Positions 23,563 through 42,133 of a stretch of 64,000 nucleotides of DNA are shown piece by piece. Origin of the DNA: Giardia intestinalis (lineage: Eukaryota). A program made the position numbers and the translations under genes. The stretch lies in assembly GCA_000002435.2 (NCBI GenBank), contig CM018791.1; one strand, 5' to 3'. The notes under the pieces are model-generated. The model was not told the DNA's origin. It did not search any database and worked only from the letters and a program-made list of their open reading frames with translations. How positions within the stretch are numbered: the first letter of the stretch is position 1; the number at the start of each line of letters is the position of its first letter.

Positions 23563-25194
23563 ATGGACACACGACTCATGGAGGCTGCACGTTCTGGCAG
23601 AGCTCTTCCGCCAGATTCTGAGATACAGAGAGATGCAGGCCAGCAAGATAAACACGGCTGGACAGCTCTTATGTACGCTGCCCAAAATGGACACACACAC
23701 ATCGTCAAACGCTTGGCTTCCCTTGAAAAGGGGATTCGCGATCATTCTGGACGGACAGCTCTGATGCATGGTGTTTCTAGCGGTATGCAAGAGGTAGCAG
23801 AGCTCCTGATTGCACATGAAGCAGCCGTCGCTGATAATACTGGGCGCACAGCTCTAATGATCTCTGCAAAACAAAAGCGTGTCGGCTTATGCTCTCTCTT
23901 AGCTCCCTTAGAGGCAGGGATTCAGGACCAGGCCGGCTGGACAGCTATGATGCACGCTCTTGATAGCCGGTTCGATGACATCGGCCAATCTCTTTGGGGC
24001 GATGACGGTGGTGCAGCTGTTGAAGAAATCTGTAAGATTCTAGTTTCAGCAGAGGTCGGAAAGTCGGCCGTTAATGGAATGACGGCTCTCATGCTTGCTG
24101 CAGAAGCTGGATATGAACACGTGTGCCGCCTGCTCATAGAAAAGGAAGCGGGGCGTAGCACTGCTTCGGGCATGACAGCAATGATGCTAGCTGCGCAGTA
24201 TGGCAGCCACCGCATAGTGCGAATGCTCTTGGCAAGAGAGGTTGGGCTTATCACTCAGGAAGGAAAGACAGCACTCATGTGTGCGGCAGAGTTTGGACAT
24301 TTCGAATGTTGCAAGTTGCTCCTCGGGGGCGAGGGGCTCATCCATACCCAGGATCATGTGACAGCCCTCATGTACGCTGCTCGGAGTGGACACCTGGCAG
24401 TAGTGAAGCTTTTACTGCCTCTGCAGCAGGGCATTGTAAGTGACACTGGCCTGACTGCCTACCTCTGCGCAGAAGAGGCTGGAAACTCAGATTGTGCAGA
24501 GGTATTGCGGCCATTAGAAACTACTGAGGCGGTCCGCTCTCTTATCCTGCAGTCCACCGCTGGTATCAATCTAAAGACACCTGAAGGACTTACAATCGCC
24601 GATCGCTCGCTCTTGCTGAATGATCTTACAGAGACTCGGCTTAAGAAAACAGGAACACGTGCAGGAGGGATACTACAGTGCGAACTTGTAGAGAAGGAGC
24701 GGACAATCGGTATTCTCACGAAGCAGCTCAAAAGGGAAAGAATCGCCTCTGAAAAGCTAGAGAACTTGGTCCGATCTTGCAAAGAAGAAATCCGCCAGCT
24801 CCAGCAACAACTGCAAGTCCAGGGTGATGAGGTCGAAGCCCTTACACGCCAAGCTGCTGCTTTGCCTGACCACTTTGGTAGAGATGCTGCGAAAGCACAC
24901 ACCTGCCTGCCGATCCAGCCCAGCGATCTTGCTTCTTTTGACATGGGTCAACTTGAAGAGCTGGATCGCCATCTTAGTGACTCGCTTGATACTGTAAGGA
25001 CAGCAAAGGTGACTCTTGCAGCTGGATCTCGCGCAAATGCCTGCCTTGTCTGCCTAGATAACCGTGCAACGATCTTCTATCTTCCTTGCCAACACATGGT
25101 CACCTGTCGGGAGTGTGAGGCCAAGCTCCGCGACAACCGCTGCCCGCTCTGTCGGGTAGTCATAGAGGCCTCCTATGTCGTATACACAAATTAG
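23563..25194 (+). CDS. Ankyrin-repeat protein with a coiled-coil and a C-terminal C3HC4 RING finger (putative E3 ubiquitin ligase, Protein 21.1-like).
   Basis: At least 9 ankyrin repeats with the G(R/W/M)TALM signature, a coiled-coil (KRERIASEKLENLVRSCKEEIRQLQQQLQVQGDEVEALTRQ) and a terminal CLVCLDNRATIFYLPCQHMVTCRECEAKLRDNRCPLCR. Confidence 0.85.
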   Translation: MDTRLMEAARSGRALPPDSEIQRDAGQQDKHGWTALMYAAQNGHTHIVKRLASLEKGIRDHSGRTALMHGVSSGMQEVAELLIAHEAAVADNTGRTALMISAKQKRVGLCSLLAPLEAGIQDQAGWTAMMHALDSRFDDIGQSLWGDDGGAAVEEICKILVSAEVGKSAVNGMTALMLAAEAGYEHVCRLLIEKEAGRSTASGMTAMMLAAQYGSHRIVRMLLAREVGLITQEGKTALMCAAEFGHFECCKLLLGGEGLIHTQDHVTALMYAARSGHLAVVKLLLPLQQGIVSDTGLTAYLCAEEAGNSDCAEVLRPLETTEAVRSLILQSTAGINLKTPEGLTIADRSLLLNDLTETRLKKTGTRAGGILQCELVEKERTIGILTKQLKRERIASEKLENLVRSCKEEIRQLQQQLQVQGDEVEALTRQAAALPDHFGRDAAKAHTCLPIQPSDLASFDMGQLEELDRHLSDSLDTVRTAKVTLAAGSRANACLVCLDNRATIFYLPCQHMVTCRECEAKLRDNRCPLCRVVIEASYVVYTN

Positions 25195-25221: not shown

Positions 25222-25914
25222 TTAATATCTGTTAACACCGTTAATGTTGAGTCCTTTAATGTGCTCTGTGAGGCGCCTTCGGAACTCTGTCACTTCGCTC
25301 TCGCTAAGATTTATGTCGAACAGATGTGCCCAGCCGCGGCGAAGCCCGTTATCATCCAAACCAAAACCGATCAGCCATGAACCCTTGGGCATGGGCGTGT
25401 ATCCATAGAACATCTTGGTATCCGCGAGTGCTGAATGCTTTTTGATGGCGTCCACATCCTTAACAAAGCAGGAACAGATCTTAGCGTGCTTGATCTGCTC
25501 CTGAATGGAGAAGATGGTATGCCCCGAGTCGACATACTCGTCAATAAGCACAACCTCACGCTTCTCTTTGAGCTGCTTGAGGTCCTCTTCGTCAAACACG
25601 ACAGATTCTTGCCTCGTGCCCTTGTACGACGAGACCTTCACGAAGTGGAGGGTGTACGGGAATGTAAGATGAACTGTCAACAGCGATGCATAGAGATAGG
25701 CCCCGGTCAACAGGGCGACAAGTGTGACAGGTTCTGCGACGTCCTTGTAGTACTCGTTCATTCTGCGCGCAGTATCTGCTGCAAGCGCCTTACACTCCTC
25801 AAAAGTGGCTAGAAGGTGGAATTTCTTCACCTCTGACTCTAGTACATCGTTACGGTCCTTGAAAAACGTTGAGAGTACATCCTTGACCGGCTTTCCTGTC
25901 ACAGAGCAAATCAT
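25222..25914 (-). CDS. GPRT: Guanine phosphoribosyltransferase (type I PRTase, purine salvage).
   Basis: 230-aa ORF with the PRPP-binding motif VVLIDEYVDSGHT. Giardia lamblia GPRT is a 230-aa protein. The ATG is preceded by cagaaaaaatgatt. Confidence 0.8.
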   Translation of the reverse strand: MICSVTGKPVKDVLSTFFKDRNDVLESEVKKFHLLATFEECKALAADTARRMNEYYKDVAEPVTLVALLTGAYLYASLLTVHLTFPYTLHFVKVSSYKGTRQESVVFDEEDLKQLKEKREVVLIDEYVDSGHTIFSIQEQIKHAKICSCFVKDVDAIKKHSALADTKMFYGYTPMPKGSWLIGFGLDDNGLRRGWAHLFDINLSESEVTEFRRRLTEHIKGLNINGVNRY

Positions 25915-25969: not shown

Positions 25970-28900
25970 TTAATTTGTGATTACAGGGTTTGTCCCCGGA
26001 TCATCTGACTTGCAAAAGAATCGTACCCGTGTCTCTGGTCCACCATATGGGGGGTTTGTCGCTCGGATTGTAAGGGAGGGTTTCTCTGGTGGCCTCAGCG
26101 AAGATTGAAGGACATCTGTGGAAGGCTGAAATATGCTAACAGTGGTGCTGCCTTTTTCGTGAGCAGACCCTGCGGTAACTACTTTAAGAGCTACAAAGGG
26201 GCTGTTTCTAAAACTTGTTGCTAAAAACTCACCTTCGTCGGAACTAGAAGAAGAACTAGACGATGCAGACAGAGGTGGGGTAAGAGGTATCACGACAGGT
26301 TCAAACTGAGATGCCTGTAATTCCTCTGATTTGCACACATGCTTGCTTGTTGAGCAACTCCTAGACACCAAGGACCGCTTTATGTTGTCGCCTGAAAGGT
26401 TCTGAATTATAATGCTAGCATCCACCGCGTCTCTGTGATCACAGTCTCGAAAGGGCGCTGACTGTGGCTCATACTGTGTCGAGGCAGAACTTGTCGAAAC
26501 GCGCATCTGCGCAAAAAGAAGCTTCATGTCCAACAAGTTGAGCCTTGTCTGTATCTCTGCTTCAATGTGTTCCTTCCCGTCCTTTGTGCCCAGGAGTTCT
26601 TCAAGCAGCCTTATGCGAGCTTCTTGCTCGGCTCCTTTAGCTTCACCCGAGGCAACATCTCCTTGCAGATGAGCGATAGTGTCTTGAAGTTTAGAGATAG
26701 TATCTTGACTCTCGTGTAGTTTTCTCTTGTAGTCCGAGACCTTACTCTCTGCTGAGCTTATCGTCTTCATAACTTCCGAAACAACCTCATTCATATCTTC
26801 TGCTTCCAGCTCACGTGCTGCAAGTACTTGAGTCTGCTGGTGCAAACGCTCGACAAGGATGTCGCAGTAACGCTCACATTCTATTGCACACAAGTAAGGA
26901 GACTGTGGGGGAGAGCATAGGCGTGAAACAGAGTAGGAGTTCTCCACCACGGATGCTTCTTGATGGATATGTTTGAGTAGCTCGTCAGTTTGCATAGATA
27001 CCTCCACACACGCTTCGTGTTTCTGTGCGAGATTTTTATAGTCTGACAGTATATGATTATGAGTACTTGGTGCATCGCTCATCACACTGTTGCTTTCAGA
27101 GGTACAGCGCGGCTCATTTCCGGAACACAGAAGGCACTGTATGGACTTAAACGCAATACTAATTTCTTCACATTGCGTACTCGCTATTTTAGTATCTGAT
27201 TCTATGATTAGCTTTTCGTCTGGACCTAGCATGCGTGACTGGAGGGCTGCCAGTGTGCCGTACGGTGCCACGTCAACCTCGTCCGTCTGGACCCCAAAGT
27301 ACTTCATATCGGGTGCGTCCACTTGAATTGCCGCGAACACCATCGTAGTAGTATCTTCTACTGAGCCGAAGTCAGACCCTTGCTCTTCATTATACCCTCT
27401 ACATCGTGGAACATGTGAATTATCACTTGGTCCAGTAGACGGGCCAAGTGAGTTCAATGGTGCACTCCGTAAGTCCATCTCAGAAGTCCTGTCTGCATTA
27501 CTAGGTGGCTGTAAAAGCTCACATTGAATCGCTTTGAAGGATGGGAGCGGAGCTTCAATCTGAGTTCCGGTGTGAATCTTCTGAGATCCGTCTAGCTCAG
27601 CATCTATCTTTCCACACCCACCTACAGATGACTTCCCTTTTCCAAGGCCGGTAGACTGGGTAAGCAAGAGTGACCTGATGGCAGCATCAAGAGCAGATTC
27701 GGGCGTATCCTCAGCGCATGTGTCTAGGTGCAACTTCAAGAGGATGGAACTGGGAATAATGGTACAATCCGCTCCCTTGGATCTGTCGTGAACACTTTTC
27801 AGTTGCAGCAACCTCCGATATTCTTCGTCTGCTTCTTCTTCCACGTGATCCACACTTATAGAGGCATTTGGAGGAAGAGTGTCGAATTGGGAGTTATTAT
27901 AATTTGTTAACTCGCGCAGATTTCCTGTCTGGGTTTCGTCATCCACGGTGAACAATTCTCTCACAGTCTGGACAGATTTAAACACTAAAAGCTCATGCAG
28001 ATCTGCTTGGGTCTCAGCATGGACAAAGAACTCAGCAAGATAGGTTTGCGTGGATCCGTGGGCAATATCCCCCAGGTCTATCTCCGTGCATGACACAGCC
28101 TTGTCCAGATATCCCGACGCCCTTAATTCCTCAAGCCTGGCCCTTTCTTCCCGTTGGTGCCTAAATGCATCCTTCAGCAAAAGGTTGTCTGCCTGTAATT
28201 CATCCCGCTCCTTCGTCAATATTGCCAACTTTTGGCAGAGTTGCTCCTTCTCTTCCGTTATTACCTGATTTTCAGAGAGGATGTCATTGATACGACAGGT
28301 CACTGCTTCAATTGCAGAGCACTGAGCTGCAAGTCGATAAGAGGCCGATTCAGTTGCAGCTAAAATATACTTCTGAGCATCGTCTAAAGATGGCGCTGTG
28401 CTTGTGTTCATATATGCACAGATACGTCTGGACACTTGCTGATCGAGGCCATCGAGCCTTGATACCTTTAGGCCATCGCTTAGCTGTGCTTGCATAGTCA
28501 GTAAAATAGAGAGATACCTTGTTGCCTCATCATGGAACGCTCGTGCTGCATGCTCTGTCATGGTTAACCTGCTAAGTGTTTCAGCGTGCTTTTCACTTAC
28601 CTGGTCCTTTTCTTTAGCAAGCTGGGCTAGATCTGCTTCCCTCTTGAGTACCAGTCCATGCACGTCATCGAGTGATGGAGCTATCGCACAACTTGCTTCA
28701 GCGGTCTCCTTTGCGTGGGCCAACCGCCTGAGGTCAAACATTACATGGAAGAGCTTTCGCCGGTAGGCGTTCAGAGTAAGGAGATATTCTGGTATAGCTT
28801 CTGGAACAGGAAACTGCACGGCAGAAGCGGCCTCCTGCCTATTCAACAACTCGTCCAAAATTTTCACTTGTTCACGCAGAAAAACAACCTCATCGATCTG

Positions 28901-30199
28901 ACTGCTTAGCATAAAATCTTGGCGTTCAGCAGAAGAAACAGTTTCTACTGATTGCACCGCTGACTGCAGCAACGCATTGGATGCCTTCAGCTTTTCTACC
29001 TGCTGCTCAAGAGAATCTAGCTCACTACGTAGTCGTTCTTCATTCTGCTTGTGACCTTGTAATTGACCCTGCAAAGTGTGGATATATGTACTATCCACGA
29101 TCTGCTCAGAATTCTTGAGAAGGGTTTTGATCCGCCGCAGGCGCTTAGCCTCACTAACGTCTGGTGCACCAGACATTGATTCAATAGTGTCATCGTCTTC
29201 GTCGCTGAAATCGTATGCGGTCCGCCGCCGTATCTCTTTGTAACATACATCTGTTTGGGACTCCACGGTGGCATAGGTGGGACAGTAGTCCGGCATTGTC
29301 GCTTGGTCAACAAACTGCTGCAATACCAGCTCTTCAACGGGTGCCTGGTGATGAGATTGCAGAAACGGTTCTGTTGCATCTATGGAAGGTGGCGGTAGAG
29401 GTCTAATAATTGATTCATTAGCTGGCTTACTCGGCAATGTGTGTGCTTCAGTGTGGCGCTTGGATGACTGGGACGATGATGCTCCATTTCTAGAAAATAG
29501 AATGACTTGTTCATCAATTACAAGTTTTGTTCTAGCTTTCTGAGCAGCAGAATGAGAGTTATCATAAGAGCGAATGGCTGAGTTAGCTTCTTGGGTACAC
29601 GAAGTAGACGGCAGGCTATGGGTGTTCTTACCTGTTAACTCAGATAGAGTCAGCTCATCTGATCTAATAAGAGATACACTGAGGTCCTGCACATCTCTAC
29701 CATTAAATTTTTTCAATTGTGGAAAATTCTTAATAATATCACGGTATGTTTCCCGTTTCATCAAAGGGTTTTCGCGGATGTCCAGAGACTCTAAAGACTT
29801 AAGGGATAGAACGGGGGCTATGAGATCTAATGAGTATATGTTGTTATGTGAAAGGTCAAGGCTGCGGATGGATGTAGGGATAGTGCAGGCCAAGCGTACA
29901 ATCCTATTATGACTTAAGTTAAGTGTCTGAAGCTTGGGGAACGGAAGAACTTGATCTACATCGACAATCACGTTGTGACTGGCATTGAAGTCTAAGAGTT
30001 GAAACATTGGCAACAAGTCATTGAGCGATGAGAGCCTGTTGTTGGATATGTCCAATTGCTTGATTTGCGGGGAAAGAAAAGACCGTAGATCGGCAAGTGT
30101 TTCGATATTTTGCCCCGATAGATCTAAAATCGTGTCTCCTCTATTCTCCTTTCTTCCTTGCGTCTGTGTTGAGCCAGCTCTCGCTGTTGGAGAGCTCAT
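25970..30199 (-). CDS. Leucine-rich-repeat (SDS22-like) plus long coiled-coil protein, paralog of the 43392..46322 gene.
   Basis: N-terminal LRRs (LDLSGQNIETLADL, LDISNNRLSSLNDL, LNLSHNRIVRL, LDLSHNNIYSL, LDIRENPL) are followed by about 900 aa of predicted coiled coil. It shares the motif YRRKLFH with the paralog. The track start is TTG. I used the ATG at 30199, which is preceded by ggAAATTAAAAATG. Confidence 0.85.
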   Translation of the reverse strand: MSSPTARAGSTQTQGRKENRGDTILDLSGQNIETLADLRSFLSPQIKQLDISNNRLSSLNDLLPMFQLLDFNASHNVIVDVDQVLPFPKLQTLNLSHNRIVRLACTIPTSIRSLDLSHNNIYSLDLIAPVLSLKSLESLDIRENPLMKRETYRDIIKNFPQLKKFNGRDVQDLSVSLIRSDELTLSELTGKNTHSLPSTSCTQEANSAIRSYDNSHSAAQKARTKLVIDEQVILFSRNGASSSQSSKRHTEAHTLPSKPANESIIRPLPPPSIDATEPFLQSHHQAPVEELVLQQFVDQATMPDYCPTYATVESQTDVCYKEIRRRTAYDFSDEDDDTIESMSGAPDVSEAKRLRRIKTLLKNSEQIVDSTYIHTLQGQLQGHKQNEERLRSELDSLEQQVEKLKASNALLQSAVQSVETVSSAERQDFMLSSQIDEVVFLREQVKILDELLNRQEAASAVQFPVPEAIPEYLLTLNAYRRKLFHVMFDLRRLAHAKETAEASCAIAPSLDDVHGLVLKREADLAQLAKEKDQVSEKHAETLSRLTMTEHAARAFHDEATRYLSILLTMQAQLSDGLKVSRLDGLDQQVSRRICAYMNTSTAPSLDDAQKYILAATESASYRLAAQCSAIEAVTCRINDILSENQVITEEKEQLCQKLAILTKERDELQADNLLLKDAFRHQREERARLEELRASGYLDKAVSCTEIDLGDIAHGSTQTYLAEFFVHAETQADLHELLVFKSVQTVRELFTVDDETQTGNLRELTNYNNSQFDTLPPNASISVDHVEEEADEEYRRLLQLKSVHDRSKGADCTIIPSSILLKLHLDTCAEDTPESALDAAIRSLLLTQSTGLGKGKSSVGGCGKIDAELDGSQKIHTGTQIEAPLPSFKAIQCELLQPPSNADRTSEMDLRSAPLNSLGPSTGPSDNSHVPRCRGYNEEQGSDFGSVEDTTTMVFAAIQVDAPDMKYFGVQTDEVDVAPYGTLAALQSRMLGPDEKLIIESDTKIASTQCEEISIAFKSIQCLLCSGNEPRCTSESNSVMSDAPSTHNHILSDYKNLAQKHEACVEVSMQTDELLKHIHQEASVVENSYSVSRLCSPPQSPYLCAIECERYCDILVERLHQQTQVLAARELEAEDMNEVVSEVMKTISSAESKVSDYKRKLHESQDTISKLQDTIAHLQGDVASGEAKGAEQEARIRLLEELLGTKDGKEHIEAEIQTRLNLLDMKLLFAQMRVSTSSASTQYEPQSAPFRDCDHRDAVDASIIIQNLSGDNIKRSLVSRSCSTSKHVCKSEELQASQFEPVVIPLTPPLSASSSSSSSSDEGEFLATSFRNSPFVALKVVTAGSAHEKGSTTVSIFQPSTDVLQSSLRPPEKPSLTIRATNPPYGGPETRVRFFCKSDDPGTNPVITN

Positions 30200-30211: not shown

Positions 30212-30763
30212 ATGAATCCCACTGAGTTCATTCGCCAAGCATATGCGTCAAACATCACCGCTGAGCGCCGCGCATCACTAAAGTCCATGTTTACTAAGGC
30301 TGACGTAGATAACTCTGGGTACATCTCTATCTGCGAAGTGCAAAACCTGTTATCAACGGAGTCATTCCGCTTCCCTCTGCAGAGCGCACGCATGCTTGTT
30401 CGCATATATTCCAGCCAGGGACAGATCTCCTTTGATGACTTTATGCAGATAGAGGGGTTTGCGTCGTATGCCATTGACGTCTTTCATGGCGAGAAGGGAG
30501 ATAGAAAGGCAATACAAAGAAGCGAAGTAGCCGATGCACTAATGCAGATGAGGCTCAACTTCACTTCGGAAACATTGGAGATGCTCTTCAAGCACTTCGA
30601 CACTAACGACTCCGGGAGCCTGAGTCTACCCCAGTGGATTCGACTGACGTCTCTGTGCCTTCTCGGCAGAAGACTCTTCACCGAGTGGGATGTACAGGTG
30701 AAGGGGGAGCTTACTATCGGCTTGGAGCAGGTCCTCCTCATAGGGACGTGGTTCACTGAGTGA
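30212..30763 (+). CDS. Penta-EF-hand-like calcium-binding protein (ALG-2/sorcin family-like).
   Basis: EF loops DVDNSGYISICE and DTNDSGSLSLPQ. Their spacing and context (FTKADVDNSGYISICEVQNLL ... FKHFDTNDSGSLSLPQWIRL) are typical of PEF proteins. Confidence 0.6.
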   Translation: MNPTEFIRQAYASNITAERRASLKSMFTKADVDNSGYISICEVQNLLSTESFRFPLQSARMLVRIYSSQGQISFDDFMQIEGFASYAIDVFHGEKGDRKAIQRSEVADALMQMRLNFTSETLEMLFKHFDTNDSGSLSLPQWIRLTSLCLLGRRLFTEWDVQVKGELTIGLEQVLLIGTWFTE

Positions 30764-30787
30764 ACAAGAGCTGGTTTACGCCAAGAT

Positions 30788-32476
30788 TTAGCTTAAAGTA
30801 AAGCAACGAATGACGAGAGCAGGGGCGACGCCGTCAACTGGGACCTCAAAGCGTATTATAGCCGCAGCTCCGTGATTTGTTAGGTGCTCATAAAAACTCG
30901 AACTAAATACTGTGAAGTGTCGGGGTGTCTCTCGGAGCGTGGAGACGGAAAACCAATATTCCAGTTCCTGGTTTGGCCCTCCAAGTTGCTTGGGCTCAAA
31001 AGCATACTGGAAGTCCTGATGCACGCCGTCCAAAGCAACCTCGTGTCCCCGGAGGACAAGGTCCACCCCGGTATGCTTGCACCAAGTCCTAAAAAGGTCG
31101 TACGAATATCTGTACCCTAGCCGTCGTTGCGAGGGTTCGTAAAGAGTGCTTGGGGATTTAAACCTATGAGGGGCAGGATCGTTCCACGTTAGCTCTCCAG
31201 CCAAGGGATCAACAATTGTCAGACTCCTTTGCAGGATGTTCTCGTAGCTATCTATTCCCAGGTAGAGGTCTAGCTGCCTACCGTATTCCGTATACACACA
31301 CGGTGGCCCTCCGTGACAGCAGAAGATGGTTAGAGACTCTTCCTCTAAGCGGCACTTAAGCATGTGAGCCTCTTGTGAATCGGCTAAGTCATCCAACTTG
31401 GCTTCGTTTGTAGCACCAGCCTGTCCAGCCCAACTAGTGACGCTACTCACCATTGACGCCAAGCACATGATCTCACTATTAGTCCATCTAGTCGAAGAGC
31501 TTGCAGATGGGATGACTCGGTTGCAGAACCTTTCAAGAGCTCTGCAAAGTGATTGCGGTAAATAAATTAGCCGGAAAAAGTAGGGTATCGCTGCAAATGT
31601 GTCCTGAATTGCTTGGTATATAGGGCTGTGAGACCCATAGTATTTGTATATTTCTTTTGTGAAGCCGTAGATTCTATTCATAGCGTCACATTCGTGATTG
31701 CCTCGCAACAATAGTACGTTCCGGGGATATAAGTACTTGAGAACGTAAATAAACAGCACGCACGCAAGGCCGCGGCTGCCTCTATCCACATAGTCTCCTA
31801 GAAACACGTACACAGACGAGAGATCCATCGTAAACTGACTTCCTCTATCATCCCCCACCTCTTGAAAGCACTGCAGCTGGACATCCTTCAGCATGCACAA
31901 ATCATAGAACGCTGAAACGTCCATGGGGGATCCATGAACATCTCCCAAAACGCAAATCCGTTTTCCCTCGGCCAAATAGTGCTTTATGTTTCCGTCTCGA
32001 GCAAGCACACCCTTCATTTTCGACAAGAAAGGCACCAGACTGGACTCTGTGTAGTACACGTTGTTAGCAAGAACATCTACTTTGAACGATTCCAAAAGGA
32101 AAAAGCGATCCTTTAGAGAAATTCCATCAAACTGAGGAAACAATTTGTACTGGGAGCCGTCAACGACTGGGGGCATTTGCTCCAGTAGCACGAAGTCTTT
32201 TCGATATGCATCAAGCACCTTTTGGGACAAAAAGATATAGCGATTGAGTGCTTCAACACGCATTTCAGCACCTACATGTCTCTGGAGAGCCGCACGATTG
32301 TAGTACGAGAGAGCCCTCTCCAAATTGTTCTGGCATCGTAGAGAATCTCCGATGAGTAGTGACAATTCCAGCGCCTCGGGACTTGATGGCAAGTACGAAT
32401 TAAGTGCTTGTTCTGCGGCCTCCACCAGCGCGCTGCTAGGACCGTCGTAGAAAAGCTGGACCAAGCTCTGAATCAT
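30788..32476 (-). CDS. PPP-family Ser/Thr protein phosphatase with an N-terminal helical extension and a long internal insertion.
   Basis: Metallophosphatase motifs GDVHG, GDYVDRG, GNHE, HGG and RGHE are all present in order. There is a roughly 70-aa insert between GNHE and HGG. The N-terminal roughly 180 aa may be TPR-like (PP5-like). Confidence 0.85.
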   Translation of the reverse strand: MIQSLVQLFYDGPSSALVEAAEQALNSYLPSSPEALELSLLIGDSLRCQNNLERALSYYNRAALQRHVGAEMRVEALNRYIFLSQKVLDAYRKDFVLLEQMPPVVDGSQYKLFPQFDGISLKDRFFLLESFKVDVLANNVYYTESSLVPFLSKMKGVLARDGNIKHYLAEGKRICVLGDVHGSPMDVSAFYDLCMLKDVQLQCFQEVGDDRGSQFTMDLSSVYVFLGDYVDRGSRGLACVLFIYVLKYLYPRNVLLLRGNHECDAMNRIYGFTKEIYKYYGSHSPIYQAIQDTFAAIPYFFRLIYLPQSLCRALERFCNRVIPSASSSTRWTNSEIMCLASMVSSVTSWAGQAGATNEAKLDDLADSQEAHMLKCRLEEESLTIFCCHGGPPCVYTEYGRQLDLYLGIDSYENILQRSLTIVDPLAGELTWNDPAPHRFKSPSTLYEPSQRRLGYRYSYDLFRTWCKHTGVDLVLRGHEVALDGVHQDFQYAFEPKQLGGPNQELEYWFSVSTLRETPRHFTVFSSSFYEHLTNHGAAAIIRFEVPVDGVAPALVIRCFTLS

Positions 32477-32588
32477 GTTTTTTTGGGATTGCCCGTGGAC
32501 TATGGCTTAGTGGTGGATTGTGTAGGCTAGAGGCCGTGGTACGTGCGTATTAGCCGCTCGTGCATCCGTGTCCACAAATAAATATCTG

Positions 32589-35500
32589 ATGAATTCTGAT
32601 CGCTCCGCTCCACTCCGCCTATGGTTCTCAGCCGCTAGCAATGGGGACACAGAGTTCTTGAAGCATCATACGGAGGCCTGCAAAGGAAAGCTAAACGAGG
32701 CCGGCTTAACAGCACTTGCGCTGGCAATCTCTTCTAATCAATTTGAGTCTGCTGCATATCTTTCTGAACACGAAGCCACTGTGCGATTAGCAAAAAGGCA
32801 GACTCCGCTGATGCTTGCAGCGTCTCTGAATCGTACAGATATCCTCCCTCTTCTCCATGCAACCTATGGGTGGCAGGACGAGGACGGGAAGACAGCGTTG
32901 ATGTACGCAGTGCTAGCTAGCAATGCACTGGCGTCTGTGAGGCACCTTGCACCCCACGAGCACGGAATCCAATCAACTGTTTTCGAAGTGACAACGGACG
33001 ATCTTGATCTCTTCGACCGTCAGATGGAGTCCCTGCAGTATGTAACACCTTACTTCTTGTTTGAGGGTGCTATGGTCGAGGCTGTCACCGCTCTTACTCG
33101 CGACAAAACGGCCCTGCACATGGCCGTACTGGCGGGCAACGTAGACGCCTTTTCGGTACTCCTTCCCTTGGAGTACTCTATTGCCAACGCCAATAAAGAG
33201 TACTTTACTATGCTGCTTTCAAGATTAGACCCAGACACTGCTGCACTCTTCTGTCCGCTTATGACGGAAAATGCCCATCTAATCAGGTCCATCTTTGGAG
33301 CCAAGTCGAGCTCTACTGGTAAAACGGCTTTGTTGTATGCGATAGCAGAGAGAAATGCTCCGTTAGTAGAGTTCTTTTCAGCCTATGAGCTGCAAACTAG
33401 CATTACAGAGGCTGACATAGCCTTTCCTAGCCCCGATCAACAGGGAACTATAGCTGATAGCACGGAGTTGATAGAGAAACGGACATATAAAGGGTTTACA
33501 CCATTTCACTATGCGGCACTGACCGGAGACCAGCAGATCGTCTCTACTCTATTTAATTCAGTTGGAAGATTGGGAATCGTCTCTCTTGTCGAGCAGACAG
33601 ATGACCTGGGTCGTACTCCACTGCACATAGCAGCCTCGTTGCTTAATTTTAATTATATGGAGGAGTACCTGACCTTTGCTTCGCAGAACATGTTGAAGCT
33701 TAACATACAGGATGCGCGAGGCTTCAGCCCCATTGACTATGCAATTGTGTCGCCCTTGCTTGGAACTTACTGCGCAGAGTATCGAACCGCAGCGTCGAAG
33801 AGAAGGTCACATGCGTCCTATGGTGAAATAGTCTCAACAGAAGTCCCCTCAGACGTTTCTGCTGCATTCTCCAAGATCTTAGATAGCACGGTTTCTATTT
33901 ATCAACGGGAAAATAGTGACCCCACTAATCTGGAGAAGAAAGTGGCCGGCCATCTTGTGTTAGCCGTATCAAGGTTCAACTGCATGGCTGTGGATAAGAT
34001 AAGCAAGTACTGCGATGCACAACAGTTGAGCGAAGCCCTCCTGGAGGCTGCCAAGCTGTGTTTTAATGAGGTTGTCCCACATCTACTTGGGGACCCGCGA
34101 CATACCAATTCTGCCCAAGCCTCTGCTTCACTGTTTGCAGCAACTTGTGAAAATGGTCCCTTTAGGTCACTATTTCCACGCAATGAGAAAGCCCGCAATG
34201 AACGTGGGGAGACAGCTCTCATGCTGGCATGCAAAGCCCGCTGCTTTACAAATGCACTGATCGCAGTTGACGCCGAAGCGGGTCTCAAAACGTGCAACGG
34301 AGAAACCGCACTCATGTTTCTGGCCTCTTTGGGAGAACTTCCTTGCGAAGATGAACAAAGATCACTCTATAGAGAGCTTTCTGAGCGCTTGGTTTCTGCA
34401 GAAAAGGGCTCAATAGATGTGCGCGGCTATACAGCCCTGATGTACGCGGCCAAAGCAAATTCTCTGAGCCTCGTACACCAGCTACTTCGGTGGGAGTACG
34501 GGCATGTGGCATTTGACCAACTCACGTCACTGGCAGTGGCAGCACAGCATGGAAACGTGCAAGTTGTGGAGGCAATGCTTGCGTATGAAAAGAGCAAGCT
34601 TCTCGATGCAGAGCAAGATAAGATTGAGACCAAGTCCTTCACAAATTTGCGTGTGACAGCTCTGATGCTCGCTGCTGCCCGTCCTAACAACTCACGGATG
34701 TGTCAGCTGCTGGCTCCAATACAGGCTGGCATTCAAGACCAAACGGGATCGACTGCCCTTATGTATGCTGTGAAGAATGGCCACCCAGCTAATGCCAATG
34801 TACTAGCGTCTTATGAGCACTTAAAGATAGACGAAAAGGGATACAGCGCTCTTATGTACGCCATCGATAAAAACCAAACTCCCTCTATCCTCAGTCTGAT
34901 TGAGTACGAGTGTGGCATTGGTCTCTCCAGAGGCACAGGGCAAACAGCTATGATCCTTGCCGTGAAGAGTAAGGTCATAAGTATAGGCAGCAAACTACAA
35001 TACATCAAAGAACTAATCGGAAAGGAGGGTGGTGTCCAAGACAAAAGTAAAAGGACGGCGCTGATGTATGCAATTGAATCAGGAGAGGAAGGAAGCGACC
35101 AGCTGGCACTCCTGTTAGCAAAGCACGAGAAGGGGCGGCAAATGGCCGATGGAACTAGCGCCTTGATGCTTGCAGTCAAACATGAAATGTACGGTGTTGC
35201 CTTGGCCCTTACGGCATTCGAAGTGGGACTGACTACGAATACTGGATACACCGCCCTCATGTACTTATCAGCGGGGGAGAATCCATATCTCTTAGCAGAC
35301 CATAAGAAGGCGGACTACGATCAGCTGCTTCGAAAATTAGTCTTGGCAGAGGCACGGAAGCTTGATAACGACGGATGCACCGCCCTCATGCTTGCAGTCA
35401 CACATAGAAACACACGCATCATCAAGGAGCTTCTTCCCTACGAAACTAAACAGACTAATGCGAGAGGAGAGACAATGCTTATGTATGCAGCTGAGCACAA

Positions 35501-36584
35501 TATGGTAGAAATCGTCGAACTGTTAATAGACTATGAAGCTGGCATGCGTGACAAGGATGGAGAGAACGCTCTTATTCACGCGTGTAAGGCAGGCATGGTC
35601 GATGCGGCAATCGTTTTGGCAAGGTGTCCGGCCGAAGTCGACTGTGTTCCGCGAGACGGTGTAGAGGCTACCCCCATGATGGTTGCCGCTGAGTGCGGGT
35701 TGAGCTCTGTCGTTATTGCCTTGAAGCAATCGTGTGTTGGCTTTGTCTGTACAAAAGGGCCGTACTCTGGGTACTCTGCACTAGGTTTAGCGATCAAGGG
35801 AGGCCATGAAACCATAGTAAAGCTCCTCTACGACGAGATCCCTCTGTGCATGGGGTCACAGTACGGCGCCATAGAGTTGTGCATCCGCTTCAAGAGGGAG
35901 AACATGCTCCTATGGATCCTAGAATATTGTTCAAGACACAGCAAATTGGAAACAGCAGCGAAGTCCACTTGCTTCCCCAAAAGCACAGAGGTACACATCC
36001 CAGAGGCTAGTCTGGCTGCATCATACTTTTATGGGTCATCAGTGGGAAATGTGCAGATAATGCACCTGTCGGTTGAGATGCTTGGAGAGAAGGCTGCTGA
36101 CATGCAATGCAGCAAGCCTCTGAAGGCCCTTGATGCACGGTTCTATGCACTGCTACTGCACAGGAACACAAGTGAGGTCCTTGCTTGTCTCAAGAAGCGG
36201 TGGGCCTGGGTTCTAGAGGCGATTCATAGATCCATTAAAGAGGATGCTTTGCTTCTTCTCTTGGCAGACCAAATACTATATATGCTTCTGGACGACATCG
36301 ACCAGGATGAGTTACATACAGAGCTCTCTCTTGCCCATCGGCTTGAAGGGGCTTTACACGAATTGTCCCGCGCACTCAGGGAATATGAAATTGACAGCTG
36401 CTGTGTCTGCATGGATGCAGACGCAGACGTGATCTTTTTCCCGTGTAAGCACATGATAGCGTGTGAATCTTGCGCAAAGGGTCTCGCACGTTGTCCATAC
36501 TGTCGAACTATCATAAGTGAGATTTTCAATCCGTACTTCTTGCAGCTCACGGACAACTCAAAGCATCATTGCGCCATAATATAG
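32589..36584 (+). CDS. Large ankyrin-repeat protein (more than 25 repeats) with a C-terminal C3HC4 RING finger (Protein 21.1-like putative E3 ligase).
   Basis: Repeated G(K/Y/E/S)TALM(Y/L)A(A/V) cores run throughout. The terminal CCVCMDADADVIFFPCKHMIACESCAKGLARCPYCR is a RING. The track start is GTG. I used the ATG at 32589 (MNSDRSAP) behind caaataaatatctg. Confidence 0.85.
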   Translation: MNSDRSAPLRLWFSAASNGDTEFLKHHTEACKGKLNEAGLTALALAISSNQFESAAYLSEHEATVRLAKRQTPLMLAASLNRTDILPLLHATYGWQDEDGKTALMYAVLASNALASVRHLAPHEHGIQSTVFEVTTDDLDLFDRQMESLQYVTPYFLFEGAMVEAVTALTRDKTALHMAVLAGNVDAFSVLLPLEYSIANANKEYFTMLLSRLDPDTAALFCPLMTENAHLIRSIFGAKSSSTGKTALLYAIAERNAPLVEFFSAYELQTSITEADIAFPSPDQQGTIADSTELIEKRTYKGFTPFHYAALTGDQQIVSTLFNSVGRLGIVSLVEQTDDLGRTPLHIAASLLNFNYMEEYLTFASQNMLKLNIQDARGFSPIDYAIVSPLLGTYCAEYRTAASKRRSHASYGEIVSTEVPSDVSAAFSKILDSTVSIYQRENSDPTNLEKKVAGHLVLAVSRFNCMAVDKISKYCDAQQLSEALLEAAKLCFNEVVPHLLGDPRHTNSAQASASLFAATCENGPFRSLFPRNEKARNERGETALMLACKARCFTNALIAVDAEAGLKTCNGETALMFLASLGELPCEDEQRSLYRELSERLVSAEKGSIDVRGYTALMYAAKANSLSLVHQLLRWEYGHVAFDQLTSLAVAAQHGNVQVVEAMLAYEKSKLLDAEQDKIETKSFTNLRVTALMLAAARPNNSRMCQLLAPIQAGIQDQTGSTALMYAVKNGHPANANVLASYEHLKIDEKGYSALMYAIDKNQTPSILSLIEYECGIGLSRGTGQTAMILAVKSKVISIGSKLQYIKELIGKEGGVQDKSKRTALMYAIESGEEGSDQLALLLAKHEKGRQMADGTSALMLAVKHEMYGVALALTAFEVGLTTNTGYTALMYLSAGENPYLLADHKKADYDQLLRKLVLAEARKLDNDGCTALMLAVTHRNTRIIKELLPYETKQTNARGETMLMYAAEHNMVEIVELLIDYEAGMRDKDGENALIHACKAGMVDAAIVLARCPAEVDCVPRDGVEATPMMVAAECGLSSVVIALKQSCVGFVCTKGPYSGYSALGLAIKGGHETIVKLLYDEIPLCMGSQYGAIELCIRFKRENMLLWILEYCSRHSKLETAAKSTCFPKSTEVHIPEASLAASYFYGSSVGNVQIMHLSVEMLGEKAADMQCSKPLKALDARFYALLLHRNTSEVLACLKKRWAWVLEAIHRSIKEDALLLLLADQILYMLLDDIDQDELHTELSLAHRLEGALHELSRALREYEIDSCCVCMDADADVIFFPCKHMIACESCAKGLARCPYCRTIISEIFNPYFLQLTDNSKHHCAII

Positions 36585-37243
36585 CCAGCTAAGGTTTTAG
36601 GTGTACTTTTGCACAACAATTTTAGTCAGGTTTTGGAGAAAATTATAGATTTTTATGATTCCCAACACCCCTTGGATGACAGTGTCAGTAAAAGGTATCA
36701 GTAAGAGGAATGGATGAAGTCATCACCTAAAGTGCAAACGAAGGCCTCCACTCCGTCATCATCACGGTTGTGCCGCTACGCACTTTAACGTGACCAACTG
36801 CCTTGAGAAGAGCCTAAATCTGCGAATAAACCAAGTTCAGCACTAGCTAATCAAAAGATTACACGACGAATTGTTGGGGACCTCGGGGAAAGTTTTGGTT
36901 TTTGGCCAACATGCGAGGCTGTGGCTATGCTGTGGTCTCAGTATTAGTAAAAATTCTTCCATCATTAAAGTGTCTGCATCCTAGCAGACTAGCAGCAAGA
37001 GGGCACAGGATTATAACGCGAAGCGGCTGCCGCCCCACAAAGGTCAATCATGGCTCATAATTAATTTTAATTGCCTTTCATCTATTGCCTGCCTATCCCG
37101 AAGTTTTTGCGGGCGGCACCTGCATTTTAAATTAGAGCACCACATCGCTGGTGACAAAGCAGTAAGACTCAAATGCTTAACACGTTTTAATTCATTGAAA
37201 TAGTTAATTACTTAGACTGGCACTGAGCAGTGTGGAATTGCCC

Positions 37244-37864
37244 ATGGCGTGTCTAGGTGAGGTTCACAGGCAGCTTCTAGACGTAATCCAAAGATCTCGC
37301 GTAATCGACCAGCAAGTCAGGACGATGAGGGAGACGACGTTATCACGCCCAATGATTTCCTTGGACATGTCAATAAATAGCAAGTCACCGGCAATGAGAA
37401 TGGCTTTGAATGACGAGCCGCCTGACTGCGACGAGTCAACGCTTCTGGCTGATGCAATATACCATCAACACTGTGCGTCGGTGGCAGCACCAGGGATGGC
37501 ACCGGAGCTCACCAGTGCCTCTCACTTGTCCGACGGCGTAGGATCCCGGCAAGGCGATGCGATAGACTTCCTAGTTTCTACGCTACAGAGGGTGGTGCAC
37601 GACGCAAACGCTGTCCTCCGTTACGCGAAACAAGTAGGCCAAGCTAACGAACTGAGAGACACGATTCAGCCTCAGGCGTACGCTGACCCCATCCCCGACT
37701 ACTTCTCCTTAGTGGAGCGGGCGAGACAGAGTGGGCATAATGACAGCGTCGCATACAATCCCGTCGGAGGGTTTATTCGATACGTATACTCTCTGATAGA
37801 CAGAAATGCGGCCCTCCAACGAGAGCTTCAGAGACATGCTAAGTTATGTAAAGGGTCTTATTAG
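37244..37864 (+). CDS. Hypothetical protein (about 206 aa).
   Basis: ORF with its first ATG at 37244 (the track start is GTG at 37232). No recognisable domain. Its 3' end overlaps the convergent 37839..38210 gene by 26 nt. Confidence 0.45.
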   Translation: MACLGEVHRQLLDVIQRSRVIDQQVRTMRETTLSRPMISLDMSINSKSPAMRMALNDEPPDCDESTLLADAIYHQHCASVAAPGMAPELTSASHLSDGVGSRQGDAIDFLVSTLQRVVHDANAVLRYAKQVGQANELRDTIQPQAYADPIPDYFSLVERARQSGHNDSVAYNPVGGFIRYVYSLIDRNAALQRELQRHAKLCKGSY

Positions 37865-38210
37865 CCATCCTGGTAGCTCGCTCGTGGGTGGCCCGGATGG
37901 CGCGTCTCTGCCTGATCCAACTGGCGAACCATACGCTCAAGATTATCAAGGCGAAGGCCAGTGCGACCCCAAAGAGGGCTATGAAGGTAAACTCAGTGCC
38001 AGATAGATTAAATATGGACGAGCGGACGCAGATGCCGGACTGAATGGTGTTCAAGAATCGATATCCTTCTTCACACTCCGTGCATTCTATGCGTGAATCG
38101 TTTGTGTCGTAGTAGCAGCGTGCACAGTAGACTGTCCCTGTCGCAGGATTGTTGCAAGACACGCAGTGGGCACCAATGGACACTTGGCCGTCTGGACACG
38201 CCGTCGCCAT
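37839..38210 (-). CDS. Small cysteine-rich single-pass membrane protein (123 aa, mini high-cysteine protein).
   Basis: 10 Cys in 60 aa including CxxC pairs (CVSC, CARC, CTEC), then the TM helix FTFIALFGVALAFALIILSVWFASWI and a basic tail. ATG behind aacaaaaatttag. Confidence 0.55.
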   Translation of the reverse strand: MATACPDGQVSIGAHCVSCNNPATGTVYCARCYYDTNDSRIECTECEEGYRFLNTIQSGICVRSSIFNLSGTEFTFIALFGVALAFALIILSVWFASWIRQRRAIRATHERATRMANKTLYIT

Positions 38211-38675
38211 CTAAATTTTTGTTATGCCGGCGGCAGGATTTGAGTGAAGGAGCTCAGCCGGTTGGCTTGGATGCGTTCTTTTGTATAACTCATCGCAGGG
38301 TCATACGGGGCAAGAACCTGTCATCACAGCTTTTAATTTAGTGCGATTCTGGAAGTCGGCAAAAAACGATATTAAATTGGAAATTCAAGTGAAATTTCAC
38401 GTCTGTCCTTTTGGATGATGGGCGTGAGAGACCCACTTTTCTATGTCTTCGTTGCATTCTGAACATTGCGAAGTGCCGTGTCCCGGGGAAGGTCTCGCCT
38501 CCTATTAGCTAGGGCAACCATCTGTGGTGTCCCTAGCATTCCCTGCTTGAGCTAGGGATCATCCAGTCGCTGCTTTGTCGCTCATTCTACCTATCACACG
38601 GACCTGATACTTTGAGATAGAGCGATCATCCTTGTCAGAGGCTGGTATACTGTTGTAGAGTAATCAGATTAATCT

Positions 38676-39137
38676 ATGCAGAAGGTGACCGCTTTTCTTG
38701 ACAACGGAGGCGTGCTGCGGCAGTGCCCTGACAATGCCACCGTTACTCTTGTTGATGCTCTCACTCGTAACGGTAGCCCGGTAGTAGTGGTGCAGACTGA
38801 CGATGGGATTGCGTCCCAGGTGCCACTTCAGAACTGCACACACGCTACTGTGGCTGGTGCTGCGCTCTACCTTTTCGACAAGGACGTCACGCTCTTAGTA
38901 TTACTTTTCCAGTCCCAAGCACAGGCCGCCAAGTTTACTGAGACCGTGGCCAAGCATGTCAAACTTCTGGGGGCAGGGGGGCTCAACATCGAGGAGGCCC
39001 TACACGGAAAGAAGGCCGACTCTGACCTCGACTGCGACCAGGAGACACAAATACTGGGGATACTAAGGGACCCTTCATTTCCGGAATACGTGGACGCTGT
39101 TGAGAAGATTTTGTGCCGTATGATTGTGACCAAGTGA
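38676..39137 (+). CDS. Hypothetical protein (153 aa).
   Basis: ATG behind gtaatcagattaatct. No assignable domain. Confidence 0.45.
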   Translation: MQKVTAFLDNGGVLRQCPDNATVTLVDALTRNGSPVVVVQTDDGIASQVPLQNCTHATVAGAALYLFDKDVTLLVLLFQSQAQAAKFTETVAKHVKLLGAGGLNIEEALHGKKADSDLDCDQETQILGILRDPSFPEYVDAVEKILCRMIVTK

Positions 39138-39237
39138 GGCATCGTATGCTCCAGCATGCTACTGGGCTACTGGGTGCTTTTGGCCGTTCTGGTTATTGTC
39201 TGCTCTCTTCTTTTCCGTCTCTTTACAACTAAAATAA

Positions 39238-40410
39238 ATGACCGATACTTTTCATGCTTTGCAGCAAGCCGAGACAGAACTCCAGTTTCTACAGTCGCAA
39301 ATAGAGTTTGCACAAGCAGATTATCAGCATTTATGGAACTTGATCACCTCCCTGCGCTCGCAACTCGAGCAACACTGTGTGACACCCCTTGCCATAGGAC
39401 AGTTTGTAGAGTTTGCAGACGAAGACTACGCGGTGGTACAAGCGTCTACGAACTTCGGTAACTCTCTTGTGCGAATTAGCAGCTCTGTTGACCGCCTCAA
39501 ACTGAAGCCGATGTCTACCCTGGCCCTGGCCAAAAACTCTCTGGCTCTACTGAAGGTTCTCCCGTCGGACAACGAGATGAATTCCAATGTAATCTCCATT
39601 GAGGCCAAGCCAACGGTCACATACGCAGATATCGGTGGATATGACCAAGCAAAGCTGGAACTTCGAGAAGCAGTCGAGTTTCCATTGAAATCCCCAGAGC
39701 TTTTTGCAGCCCTAAACATACAGCCTCCGAACGCCGTGCTTCTGCACGGGCCTCCAGGCTGTGCTAAGTCTCTCTTGGTGAAAGCATGTGCGAACAGCTG
39801 TGACTGCACTTTCATATCTGTCACCTCCAGCTCATGCGTGAACAAATACTTAGGAGAGGGCCCCCGCACCATCCGTGACATCTACCGGCTTGCCCGTGAG
39901 AATGCGCCGTCAATTATTTTCTTTGACGAGATTGATGCCATAGCCAACAAACGCGGGGACTCGACGACAGAGGGAGACAAGGAGACTGCTCGCATCCTGA
40001 TGGAGTTGCTCACCAATCTAGATGGATTTGACAACGATTCCAACCTTAATAACGGCAAGATTGTTAAGACGATCTTCGCCACCAACAAGCCCGAGATGCT
40101 CGACCCTGCCCTTCTTCGAACTGGCCGAGCAGACCGGAAGATTTTCATGGACTACCCCACGAAGCGGGATAAGCGATTGATCTTCCAGACGTGTTCTAAG
40201 GACATGAAATTGGCCAACGATGTAGACTTTGAGATCTTCGTCATGCGGGGAGAGAAAATCTCCGGTGCCGAGATAGCCTCCATCTGCACAGAGGCCGGGA
40301 TGTCTGCCATTCGCGCTAATAGATACACAGTTAACATGGCCGACTTTGAGAAAGCATACTCTATTGTAGTTTCCAAGAGACAGTCTGCTAATAGACAGAT
40401 CTTTGAGTAA
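39238..40410 (+). CDS. 26S proteasome regulatory AAA-ATPase subunit (Rpt family).
   Basis: N-terminal coiled coil, then an OB-like segment, then an AAA module with Walker A GPPGCAKS (divergent), Walker B IIFFDEIDA, the arginine-finger region and a C-terminal helical lid. ATG behind ctttacaactaaaataaATG. Confidence 0.85.
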   Translation: MTDTFHALQQAETELQFLQSQIEFAQADYQHLWNLITSLRSQLEQHCVTPLAIGQFVEFADEDYAVVQASTNFGNSLVRISSSVDRLKLKPMSTLALAKNSLALLKVLPSDNEMNSNVISIEAKPTVTYADIGGYDQAKLELREAVEFPLKSPELFAALNIQPPNAVLLHGPPGCAKSLLVKACANSCDCTFISVTSSSCVNKYLGEGPRTIRDIYRLARENAPSIIFFDEIDAIANKRGDSTTEGDKETARILMELLTNLDGFDNDSNLNNGKIVKTIFATNKPEMLDPALLRTGRADRKIFMDYPTKRDKRLIFQTCSKDMKLANDVDFEIFVMRGEKISGAEIASICTEAGMSAIRANRYTVNMADFEKAYSIVVSKRQSANRQIFE

Positions 40411-40524
40411 ATGCCTCCTGGCCTCTGCTGTGTCTTTATACTTGTGTGCATATGCATGTAGACGGGCACTGGAGTGGATCTCTGAAGATTTTAAAGACTG
40501 AAAAGCTTCAGAAGAAGAAGGAAA

Positions 40525-40986
40525 ATGGAGCAAAATCAGAACTTGTGTGTCCAGACATTTCACATTCTAGACAAGGATGGAGATAACCGCATTTCTATGG
40601 AGGATTTAGAAGCATTTCTTTGCACGCTCTATGATGAGGGGGCAGTTGCAGAGGTTAACATTAGAGCCATTATTGAGAGCCTGATCAGCACGCGGGAACC
40701 GGCGCTTGACTACGTAGAACTGTTAGACTTCATTCGTGAGAATGGCTTGCTTCACGGTCATCAATCAAAGACACAGATGACACGGGCCATTCAGCGTCTC
40801 CAGGGCACGCGCTTCTCCTTCAGCACAGCCGATCTAGAGTCAAAGATGCTTGACTTAGGATTTGAGATAACGCAACAGGAGATCGACGATGTTCTGGAAA
40901 CATTCACAGGAGCGAAGGACGGAGAGGTTACCGGGGATATGTTGGCGCACCTGTTCTCTCAGCTGTGCGCATCCGACCTGGTCTAG
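40525..40986 (+). CDS. EF-hand calcium-binding protein (calmodulin/light-chain-like, 153 aa).
   Basis: Canonical EF loop DKDGDNRISMED near the N-terminus, four helix-loop-helix-sized units, and an acidic C-terminal half. Confidence 0.6.
   Translation: MEQNQNLCVQTFHILDKDGDNRISMEDLEAFLCTLYDEGAVAEVNIRAIIESLISTREPALDYVELLDFIRENGLLHGHQSKTQMTRAIQRLQGTRFSFSTADLESKMLDLGFEITQQEIDDVLETFTGAKDGEVTGDMLAHLFSQLCASDLV

Positions 40987-41023: not shown

Positions 41024-42133
<1,110 letters not shown>

Follow-up and report, generated by a model that had tools for sequence, protein, structure and literature searches.

A pair of paralogous leucine-rich repeat–coiled-coil proteins of Giardia intestinalis with a conserved module around YRRKLFH

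Two related genes in a 64-kb window

We analysed a 64-kb stretch of DNA (hereafter the window) from Giardia intestinalis WB (assemblage A), in which two genes, here called gene 1 and gene 2, encode proteins with N-terminal leucine-rich repeats (LRRs) and a long helical rod. An earlier note on this DNA had proposed that these two open reading frames (ORFs), about 13 kb apart on opposite strands, encode paralogs of one architecture that both contain the heptapeptide YRRKLFH. Both ORFs were found to match NCBI proteins exactly, gene 1 encoding the longer and more divergent paralog and gene 2 the shorter one, and the genes are transcribed divergently with a spacing of 13.2 kb (Table 1). The sole database name for the two products is "Leucine-rich repeat protein". 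Orthologs of gene 1 are known in other assemblages of G. intestinalis and in Giardia muris (TNJ28662.1, or P0051), and the orthologs of gene 2 include the G. muris protein TNJ28665.1 (P0017).

Pairwise alignment, the check that the earlier note had set, revealed similarity that reaches past a generic LRR consensus and coiled-coil heptads. BLASTP aligned the LRRs of the two proteins with 32% identity over 173 amino acids (aa) (E = 1e-25), and a central region that includes YRRKLFH with 23% identity over 282 aa (E = 1e-7). Furthermore, when the two families were compared with hhalign, using ortholog alignments of each gene as inputs (A6 and A7), they aligned with a probability of 100% and E = 1.9e-39 over 620 collinear columns, extending from aa 14 to 693 of gene 1 and roughly from aa 15 to 770 of gene 2. 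Reciprocal BLAST separated the sequences into two clean orthogroups, with 263 bits between gene 1 and TNJ28662.1 and 503 bits between gene 2 and TNJ28665.1, as against 133-166 bits for the cross-pairs. In G. muris, the genes are arranged in the order GPRT, gene 1 ortholog (-), ArsA/GET3 (-), PSI-domain protein (+), gene 2 ortholog (+) and a giant ORF (+); the paralogs are 2.3 kb apart there, and the flanking genes match those of the window. This synteny with the same flanks indicates that the local divergent duplication predates the split between G. muris and G. intestinalis. Judged from their sequences, gene 1 and gene 2 can be taken as firmly established, true ancient paralogs, and the paralogy and shared architecture that the earlier note had claimed are upheld.

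The LRR head belongs to the SDS22-like/LRRcap class

The earlier reading of SDS22-type LRRs at both N-termini was confirmed by Pfam and by structural neighbours. Gene 1 matched LRR_4 (PF12799; 42.5 bits, cut-off 27, E = 6.9e-11) and LRR_9 (PF14580; 39.1 bits, cut-off 30.5, E = 7.6e-10), and gene 2 matched LRR_8 (PF13855; 32.9 bits, cut-off 27) and LRR_4 (27.7 bits, cut-off 27), with LRR_9 below threshold (28.9 versus 30.5 bits). Pfam searches with both full proteins gave no significant match beyond the first ~170 residues. The heads share a signature, LPFP[KR]L, in which L87, P88, F89, P90 and L92 (gene 2 numbering) are invariant in both paralogs, in both G. muris orthologs and in P0053, a distant homolog described below.

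When the gene 2 head was compared with the PDB using Foldseek, the nearest structures were those of dynein light chain 1 (DNAL1/LC1), U2A', ANP32A, SDS22, DRC3 and LRRC23, with E = 3.5e-8 to 1e-5, target TM-scores of 0.6-0.74 (LC1, U2A', ANP32) and identities of 16-27%. Matches of the LRRs in phmmer searches were to FAP246 and PPP1R7 (E = 1e-11 to 1e-18), those to PPP1R7 being partial (E = 1e-7 to 1e-12), and the gene 1 LRRs gave PDB sequence matches to FAP246, SDS22, U2A' and ANP32. In structure and in sequence, the head finds its closest counterparts in DNAL1/LC1, DRC3, LRRC23, U2A', ANP32 and SDS22/PPP1R7; however, LC1, U2A', ANP32 and SDS22 are short chains that lack a long rod, and none of the matches exceeds the ~170-aa head. 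The head is of the SDS22-like/LRRcap class, and identities of 16-27% place it at the level of fold class and not of orthology.

A disordered linker with a second shared island

The head is followed by a linker that the earlier note had described as rich in Ser and Gln in both proteins. This description suits gene 2, whose linker (aa 187-447) is disordered and contains 14.6% Ser and 10.7% Gln, but not gene 1, in which the linker is of low complexity and rich in Ser and Thr, with only 6% Gln. Within the disordered linkers of both paralogs we found a second shared island, V-x-E-[QH]-[VI]-I-[LV]-F, which was aligned by hhalign. In the gene 1 island, E230, I233 and F235 are conserved almost without exception (>=90%) in the 14 sequences of the two families plus P0053, and invariance of V232 and R237 holds for the gene 1 family only. 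In the gene 2 island, V284, N285, E286, H287, I289, L290, F291 and R292 are invariant within the gene 2 family, and the surroundings have a predicted local distance difference test score (pLDDT) of about 30 in the AlphaFold2 (AF2) model.

YRRKLFH is the core of a conserved block inside the rod

Both proteins contain hundreds of residues predicted to be helical, as had been claimed: one such region in gene 2, followed by a disordered, Ser/Pro-rich stretch (aa 780-924, AF2), and two in gene 1. The gene 1 rod was modelled by AF2 as a 901-aa segment (aa 340-1240) with low confidence overall. YRRKLFH is identical in both proteins and occupies equivalent, collinear positions. It was not found a third time in the six-frame translation of the window, and it is the sole 7-mer that the two proteins have in common, with 0.008 expected by composition and 0.9% of shuffles yielding one. 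Between the two copies there are 6 differences in 21 nucleotides of DNA, every one of them synonymous, which argues for conservation at the protein level and against recent gene conversion.

The motif does not lie where it had been placed, at the junction of the LRRs and the coiled coil. The LRRs end at about aa 180, and YRRKLFH follows 300-400 residues further on, past the disordered linker and a first set of helices, inside the rod. It is located 7-11 residues into a long helix that begins after a [FY]PxP break; in gene 1, AF2 breaks the rod helices at aa 462-467 (FPVPEA). Nor is it a short isolated island, since it forms the core of a conserved block of about 80 aa. In an alignment of nine sequences from both families, G. 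muris and P0053 (A3), the invariant positions of the block are L, E, P-x-P, L, Y-R-R and F. The pattern of a helix, [FY]-P-x-P, 12-16 residues and Y-R-R-[KR]-[LI]-F was present in both genes of the window and in all 12 orthologs examined, and when 30-aa windows are compared along the full length of the gene 1 family, conservation peaks inside the block (aa 436-465; 0.89 versus 0.83 for the LRRs). On this sequence evidence, the YRRKLFH block appears to be a genuine conserved module confined to the Giardia-type LRR-coiled-coil family. The proposal that the motif is a functional site is therefore retained in part: Y, R, R and F do not vary among the G. intestinalis, G. muris and P0053 sequences, but nothing supports cleavage, and the motif is predicted to lie within a long helix.

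A heptad reading of gene 2 would put L575, Y578, L582 and I586 on core positions and leave R579, R580 and K581 exposed. With its first helix, E-x-x-x-L-[KR]-x-Q-V-x-x-L-[ED]-E, the block bears what we take to be a loose resemblance to centrosomin motif 1 (CM1), a gamma-tubulin-complex binding module. This resemblance was not borne out by Pfam, and the CM1 (Cnn_1N) reading was rejected, as no match was obtained at E <= 1 with the full proteins or at E <= 10 with the block.

The block is confined to Giardia-type proteins

An exhaustive search of 1.84 billion representative proteins with the block profile gave eight matches at E <= 1e-3. Apart from two repeat proteins, which we rejected as spurious, these were members of the Giardia families, with both G. 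muris orthologs among them (E = 1e-10 for that of gene 1), and P0053 (E = 2.5e-7). Spironucleus and other metamonads, algae and animals contributed no match. The lack of matches in other diplomonads may mean either that the family has a very narrow distribution or that a profile of 83 positions is not sensitive enough. In a word-indexed search, the block alignment recovered only two fragments of Giardia gene 2, and nothing like the block was found in Pfam (E <= 10) or among PDB sequences. With the full-length proteins, searches outside Giardia returned only generic multi-LRR proteins in which 7-13% of the query was covered. A degenerate DNA pattern for E-x6-[FY]PxP-x9-L-x2-YRR[KR][LI]F gave one match in JGI metagenomes, on a non-LRR bacterial or phage-like contig, and was discarded as spurious.

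P0053, a protein of 714 aa, is the sole homolog found outside Giardia. It is encoded by an intron-less gene (939..3083) on L001, a Logan contig of 12.5 kb and 65% GC from run SRR31929897. Its head is 42% identical to that of gene 2 (E = 1e-42), its block reads FPSP…VVYRRRLFQALFD, and its tail also matches; in BLAST, it scores slightly better against the gene 2 family than against that of gene 1. Our guess is that it comes from a GC-rich relative of Giardia. On the same contig, P0053 adjoins an uninterrupted ORF of at least 3074 aa, which is not homologous to the giant ORF beside gene 2 and which, from our own reading of its conserved motifs, may be a dynein heavy chain.

Gene 1-specific repeats and a conserved C-terminal helix

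Beyond the first helical region, gene 1 carries three copies of a bipartite repeat of about 24 aa, examples of which are GTQIEAPLPSFKAIQCELL, AAIQVDAPDMKYFGVQTDE and ASTQCEEISIAFKSIQCLL. A regular expression for the repeat matched gene 1 eight times (1.4 expected) and the G. muris ortholog P0051 11 times (1.2 expected; aa ~800-900), and the gene 2 family has a single CANFAVQV-like element only. AF2 predicted aa 696-1100 of gene 1 poorly and gave no confident structure over the repeats. Neither the repeat region nor the second coiled coil of gene 1 has a counterpart in gene 2.

The gene 2 protein ends in a tail helix, …AEKIMGMLSKLDSLM, that is invariant in the gene 2 family. The tail is also recognisable in P0053 (LRVLDILSHLDL) and in the G. 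muris gene 1 ortholog (ERFRSILSMLDA), with the common motif E-R-x-R-x-I-x-x-M-L-x-x-L-D. At the C-terminus of G. intestinalis gene 1, only ETRVRFF is left, followed by unrelated residues. The comparison suggests that the tail helix was lost from gene 1 in the G. intestinalis lineage. In its ancestral form, the protein ended with a stretch of disorder and a short amphipathic helix at the C-terminus.

A scaffold or tether is the favoured function

We consider it likely that these ancient paralogs form a lineage-restricted family, with an LRR head, a linker island and a rod bearing the YRRKLFH module, whose members would act as dimeric scaffolds or tethers, plausibly of the cytoskeleton. The succession of a head, a disordered spacer with a hydrophobic island, a rod, a disordered region and a tail helix suits a dimeric coiled-coil scaffold or tether, in which the head would dock a partner protein, the tail would bind partners too and the rod would supply reach. 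The most plausible site of action, by analogy with LRRCC1/VFL1, centriolin, CEP72 and DRC3-type proteins, would be the microtubule cytoskeleton of Giardia. The central module could, again by analogy, serve as a hinge or as the register-setting start of the rod. The Tyr and Leu of YRRKLFH would then sit in the heptad core and the two invariant Arg would be exposed as a basic patch, which may bind a partner or make salt bridges to the invariant Glu of the preceding helix.

Several observations weigh against this interpretation. Both proteins are absent from a localisation atlas of 608 Giardia proteins, and neither is listed in a table of basal-body proteins (PMC4931700). A literature look-up with the accessions and locus identifiers of both genes and their orthologs found no citing paper, and other diplomonads, for example Spironucleus, Trepomonas and Hexamita, yielded no match to the block. 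The cytoskeletal assignment is an analogy drawn from architecture, and proteins with LRRs and coiled coils also occur in non-cytoskeletal contexts. The coiled-coil regions were read from AF2 helices and a crude heptad scan, and the dimeric state is presumed. The AF2 pLDDT of the central block is about 40-60, and its helix-break-helix form derives from secondary-structure prediction and the conserved prolines.

Instead of forming a family of their own, the two proteins might be divergent orthologs or co-orthologs of LRRCC1 and its Chlamydomonas counterpart VFL1, of centriolin, of CEP72 or of CEP97, acting at basal-body triplets or appendages, positioning fibres and flagella, which we regard as unlikely. 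Centriolin (CNTRL), CEP72/LRRC36 and CEP97 share the general design of an LRR head joined to a coiled-coil scaffold, by which partners are tethered to microtubule-organising structures, and many ciliary and centriolar LRR proteins use the same SDS22/LRRcap subclass as the heads described here. The architecture also fits that of LRRCC1, whose N-terminal SDS22-like LRR gives way to a disordered region and then to a long coiled coil at the C-terminus (PMC8983040). Giardia is a flagellate in which the structures associated with the basal bodies are elaborate; its basal bodies number eight, and many of their proteins are conserved ones (PMC4931700). However, the full-length searches gave no named LRRCC1, VFL1 or centriolin, the best non-Giardia matches being the generic multi-LRR proteins of low coverage, and neither these nor the block-profile searches revealed any similarity to LRRCC1/VFL1 past the generic LRR. 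Centriolin, CEP72/LRRC36 and CEP97 were likewise not among the matches of the full-length, LRR (phmmer and PDB) and block-profile searches. Only in the Giardia-type family did we find the tail helix, the linker island V-x-E-[QH]-[VI]-I-[LV]-F and the [FY]PxP...YRR[KR][LI]F module, and the central block was unmatched outside that family in the protein, Pfam and PDB sequence searches. Furthermore, the table of basal-body proteins lists a VFL3 homolog and the LRR-named GL50803_10232, which has a CENP-F_leu_zip Pfam domain, but no VFL1/LRRCC1 homolog (PMC4931700). The likeness to LRRCC1 and centriolin that the earlier note had pointed out would accordingly be one of architecture only.

It is very improbable, in our estimate, that the proteins are scaffolds for regulatory enzymes, with R-R-K-L-F as a cyclin dock of the RxL(F) type or the V-I-L-F island as a degenerate RVxF site for protein phosphatase 1 (PP1) working together with the SDS22-like LRRs. 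RRKLF does fit the loose cyclin-docking pattern [RK]-x-L-[FL], SDS22-type LRRs bind PP1, and the V-I-L-F island lies in a disordered linker, a typical setting for linear motifs. However, cyclin docks bind in an extended form and from disordered regions, whereas YRRKLF is predicted to be helical and lies within the 80-aa conserved block. The linker island reads Q-V-I-L-F or H-V-I-L-F, with no basic residue before [VI]-x-F, and thus misfits [RK]-x(0,1)-[VI]-{P}-[FW]. There are about six LRRs, compared with about twelve in SDS22, whose concave LRR face binds PP1; the reading as PP1 regulators of the SDS22/PPP1R7 type itself fails on this count of repeats plus a cap and on the more than 80% of each protein that is not LRR. 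A gene for a PPP-family phosphatase does lie between the paralogs in the window, but it is absent from that place in G. muris, and the gene neighbourhood therefore gives the docking proposal no support.

Finally, a superficial likeness, in which a generic LRR consensus and similar coiled-coil composition coincide with a chance YRRKLFH, is effectively refuted: coiled coils and LRRs easily give spurious similarity and the central BLASTP alignment is only 23% identical, but the hhalign match runs collinearly through the LRRs, linker island, block and rod, the motif is kept at its position in every ortholog to G. muris and P0053, the probability of a shared 7-mer by chance is about 0.009, synteny extends to G. 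muris, and the LRRs share the family-specific LPFP[KR]L.

Returning to the reading as a lineage-restricted scaffold or tether, we tentatively suggest, as a possibility with a small chance of being right in full, that the block is a lineage-specific module, hitherto undescribed, that sets the register of the rod or pairs homodimers or paralog heterodimers, with the Arg-Arg patch anchoring the protein to a Giardia-specific microtubule structure such as the basal-body-associated fibres, the funis or caudal complex, the median body or the disc. If so, the family would represent a new class of diplomonad cytoskeletal organisers that are analogous but not homologous to VFL1/LRRCC1. The eight basal bodies, cytoplasmic axonemes, median body and ventral disc of Giardia are built largely from lineage-specific proteins without assigned function, and LRR-coiled-coil scaffolds organise centriole-associated structures in other eukaryotes. 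The gene annotations and the familiar architecture were known already and nothing is overturned, the function being proposed by analogy; what emerges is a distinct small family hidden behind "Leucine-rich repeat protein" annotations. Its invariant Y-R-R-F residues and the P-x-P break offer a concrete target for mutation in localisation or knock-down experiments.

Features of the locus and neighbouring genes

The features described above and the genes around them are listed in Table 1.

Table 1. Positions of genes and protein features in the 64-kb window of G. intestinalis WB
Feature	Position	Strand	Description
Ankyrin-repeat gene	23563..25194	+	543 aa; protein 21.1 type
GPRT	25222..25914		Flank of gene 1
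Gene 1	25970..30199	-	1409 aa; XP_001710204.1 / A8B3F3
Gene 1 C-terminus	25970..26050	-	Remnant of tail
Gene 1 second helical/coiled-coil region	26492..26899	-	aa 1101-1236; AF2 helices 1101-1203, 1209-1236; heptad scan flags 1123-1188
Gene 1 repeat region	27110..27592	-	aa ~870-1030; three copies of G/A-I/T-Q-x-E/D-A/V-P-x4-F/Y-x-A/G-I/V-Q-C/T-E/D
Gene 1 first helical/coiled-coil region	28118..29158	-	aa 348-694; AF2 helices 348-367, 370-416, 423-461, 468-503, 513-574, 605-694; crude heptad scan flags parts
Gene 1 central block	28700..28942	-	aa 420-500; helix, FPVPE break, then YRRKLFH helix
Gene 1 YRRKLFH	28745..28765	-	aa 479-485; six-frame motif scan
Gene 1 linker island	29489..29524	-	LVIDEQVILFSR, aa 226-237; common to gene 2
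Gene 1 LRR domain	29690..30142	-	aa ~20-170; about six 22-residue SDS22-like repeats and LRRcap; signature LPFP[KR]L
Genes between gene 1 and ArsA	30212..40986		About 10.8 kb
Ankyrin-repeat gene	32568..36584	+	1338 aa; protein 21.1 type
ArsA/GET3 gene	41024..42088	-	Between the paralogs
PSI-domain protein gene	42134..43297	+	Between ArsA and gene 2
Gene 2	43392..46322	+	976 aa; XP_001710219.1 / A8B3H2
Gene 2 LRR domain and LRRcap	43392..43949	+	aa 1-186; AF2 pLDDT about 90; Pfam LRR_8, LRR_4
Gene 2 linker island	44238..44267	+	MVNEHVILFR, aa 283-292; common to gene 1
Gene 2 helical/coiled-coil region	44733..45728	+	aa 448-779; AF2 helices 448-483, 496-507, 518-527, 532-554, 571-671, 686-779
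Gene 2 central block	44931..45188	+	aa 514-599; helix 532-554, YPHPE-bearing loop 555-570, start of 100-residue helix
Gene 2 YRRKLFH	45123..45143	+	aa 578-584; six-frame motif scan
Gene 2 C-terminal helices	46164..46316	+	aa 925-948 and 956-975 (AF2); conserved tail R-x-R-A-E-K-I-M-G-M-L-S-K-L-D-S-L-M
Gene 2 tail	46270..46319	+	Compared with gene 1 C-terminus
3869-aa ORF	46790..58399	+	Directly downstream of gene 2

The start codon of gene 1 (at 30199) is separated by 12 bp from that of a gene for an EF-hand protein (+, at 30212), leaving an extremely short divergent promoter region. A mechanical ORF for gene 1 reaches a TTG at 30238 and so overlaps the start of the EF-hand gene. The records of gene 1 from DHA2 and P15 have longer N-termini (1422 and 1475 aa, respectively), and these are probably annotation artefacts. 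The EF-hand protein (XP_001710205, GL50803_6439) is included in the localisation atlas, where it is assigned to the plasma membrane. The supplement of a proteomics study of a canine strain has no entry for either LRR protein.

Between gene 1 and ArsA, G. intestinalis has extra genes encoding this EF-hand protein, the PPP-family phosphatase, an ankyrin-RING 'protein 21.1', a proteasomal AAA ATPase and a second EF-hand protein, while the gene 1 ortholog and ArsA are adjacent in G. muris (7699..7733 of the locus L002). The extra stretch is an insertion or a synteny break within an otherwise conserved block. At the other end of this block, G. muris has its giant ORF (12799..22793 of L002) at the place equivalent to that of the 3869-aa ORF, with no Pfam match on record for the G. 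muris ORF.

Proteins with ankyrin repeats are encoded on both sides of gene 1. The 1338-aa protein has a C-terminal C3HC4 RING finger identified by Pfam, and the 543-aa protein has a Cys-rich end that looked RING-like when read by eye. These two genes may constitute another local pair of paralogs.

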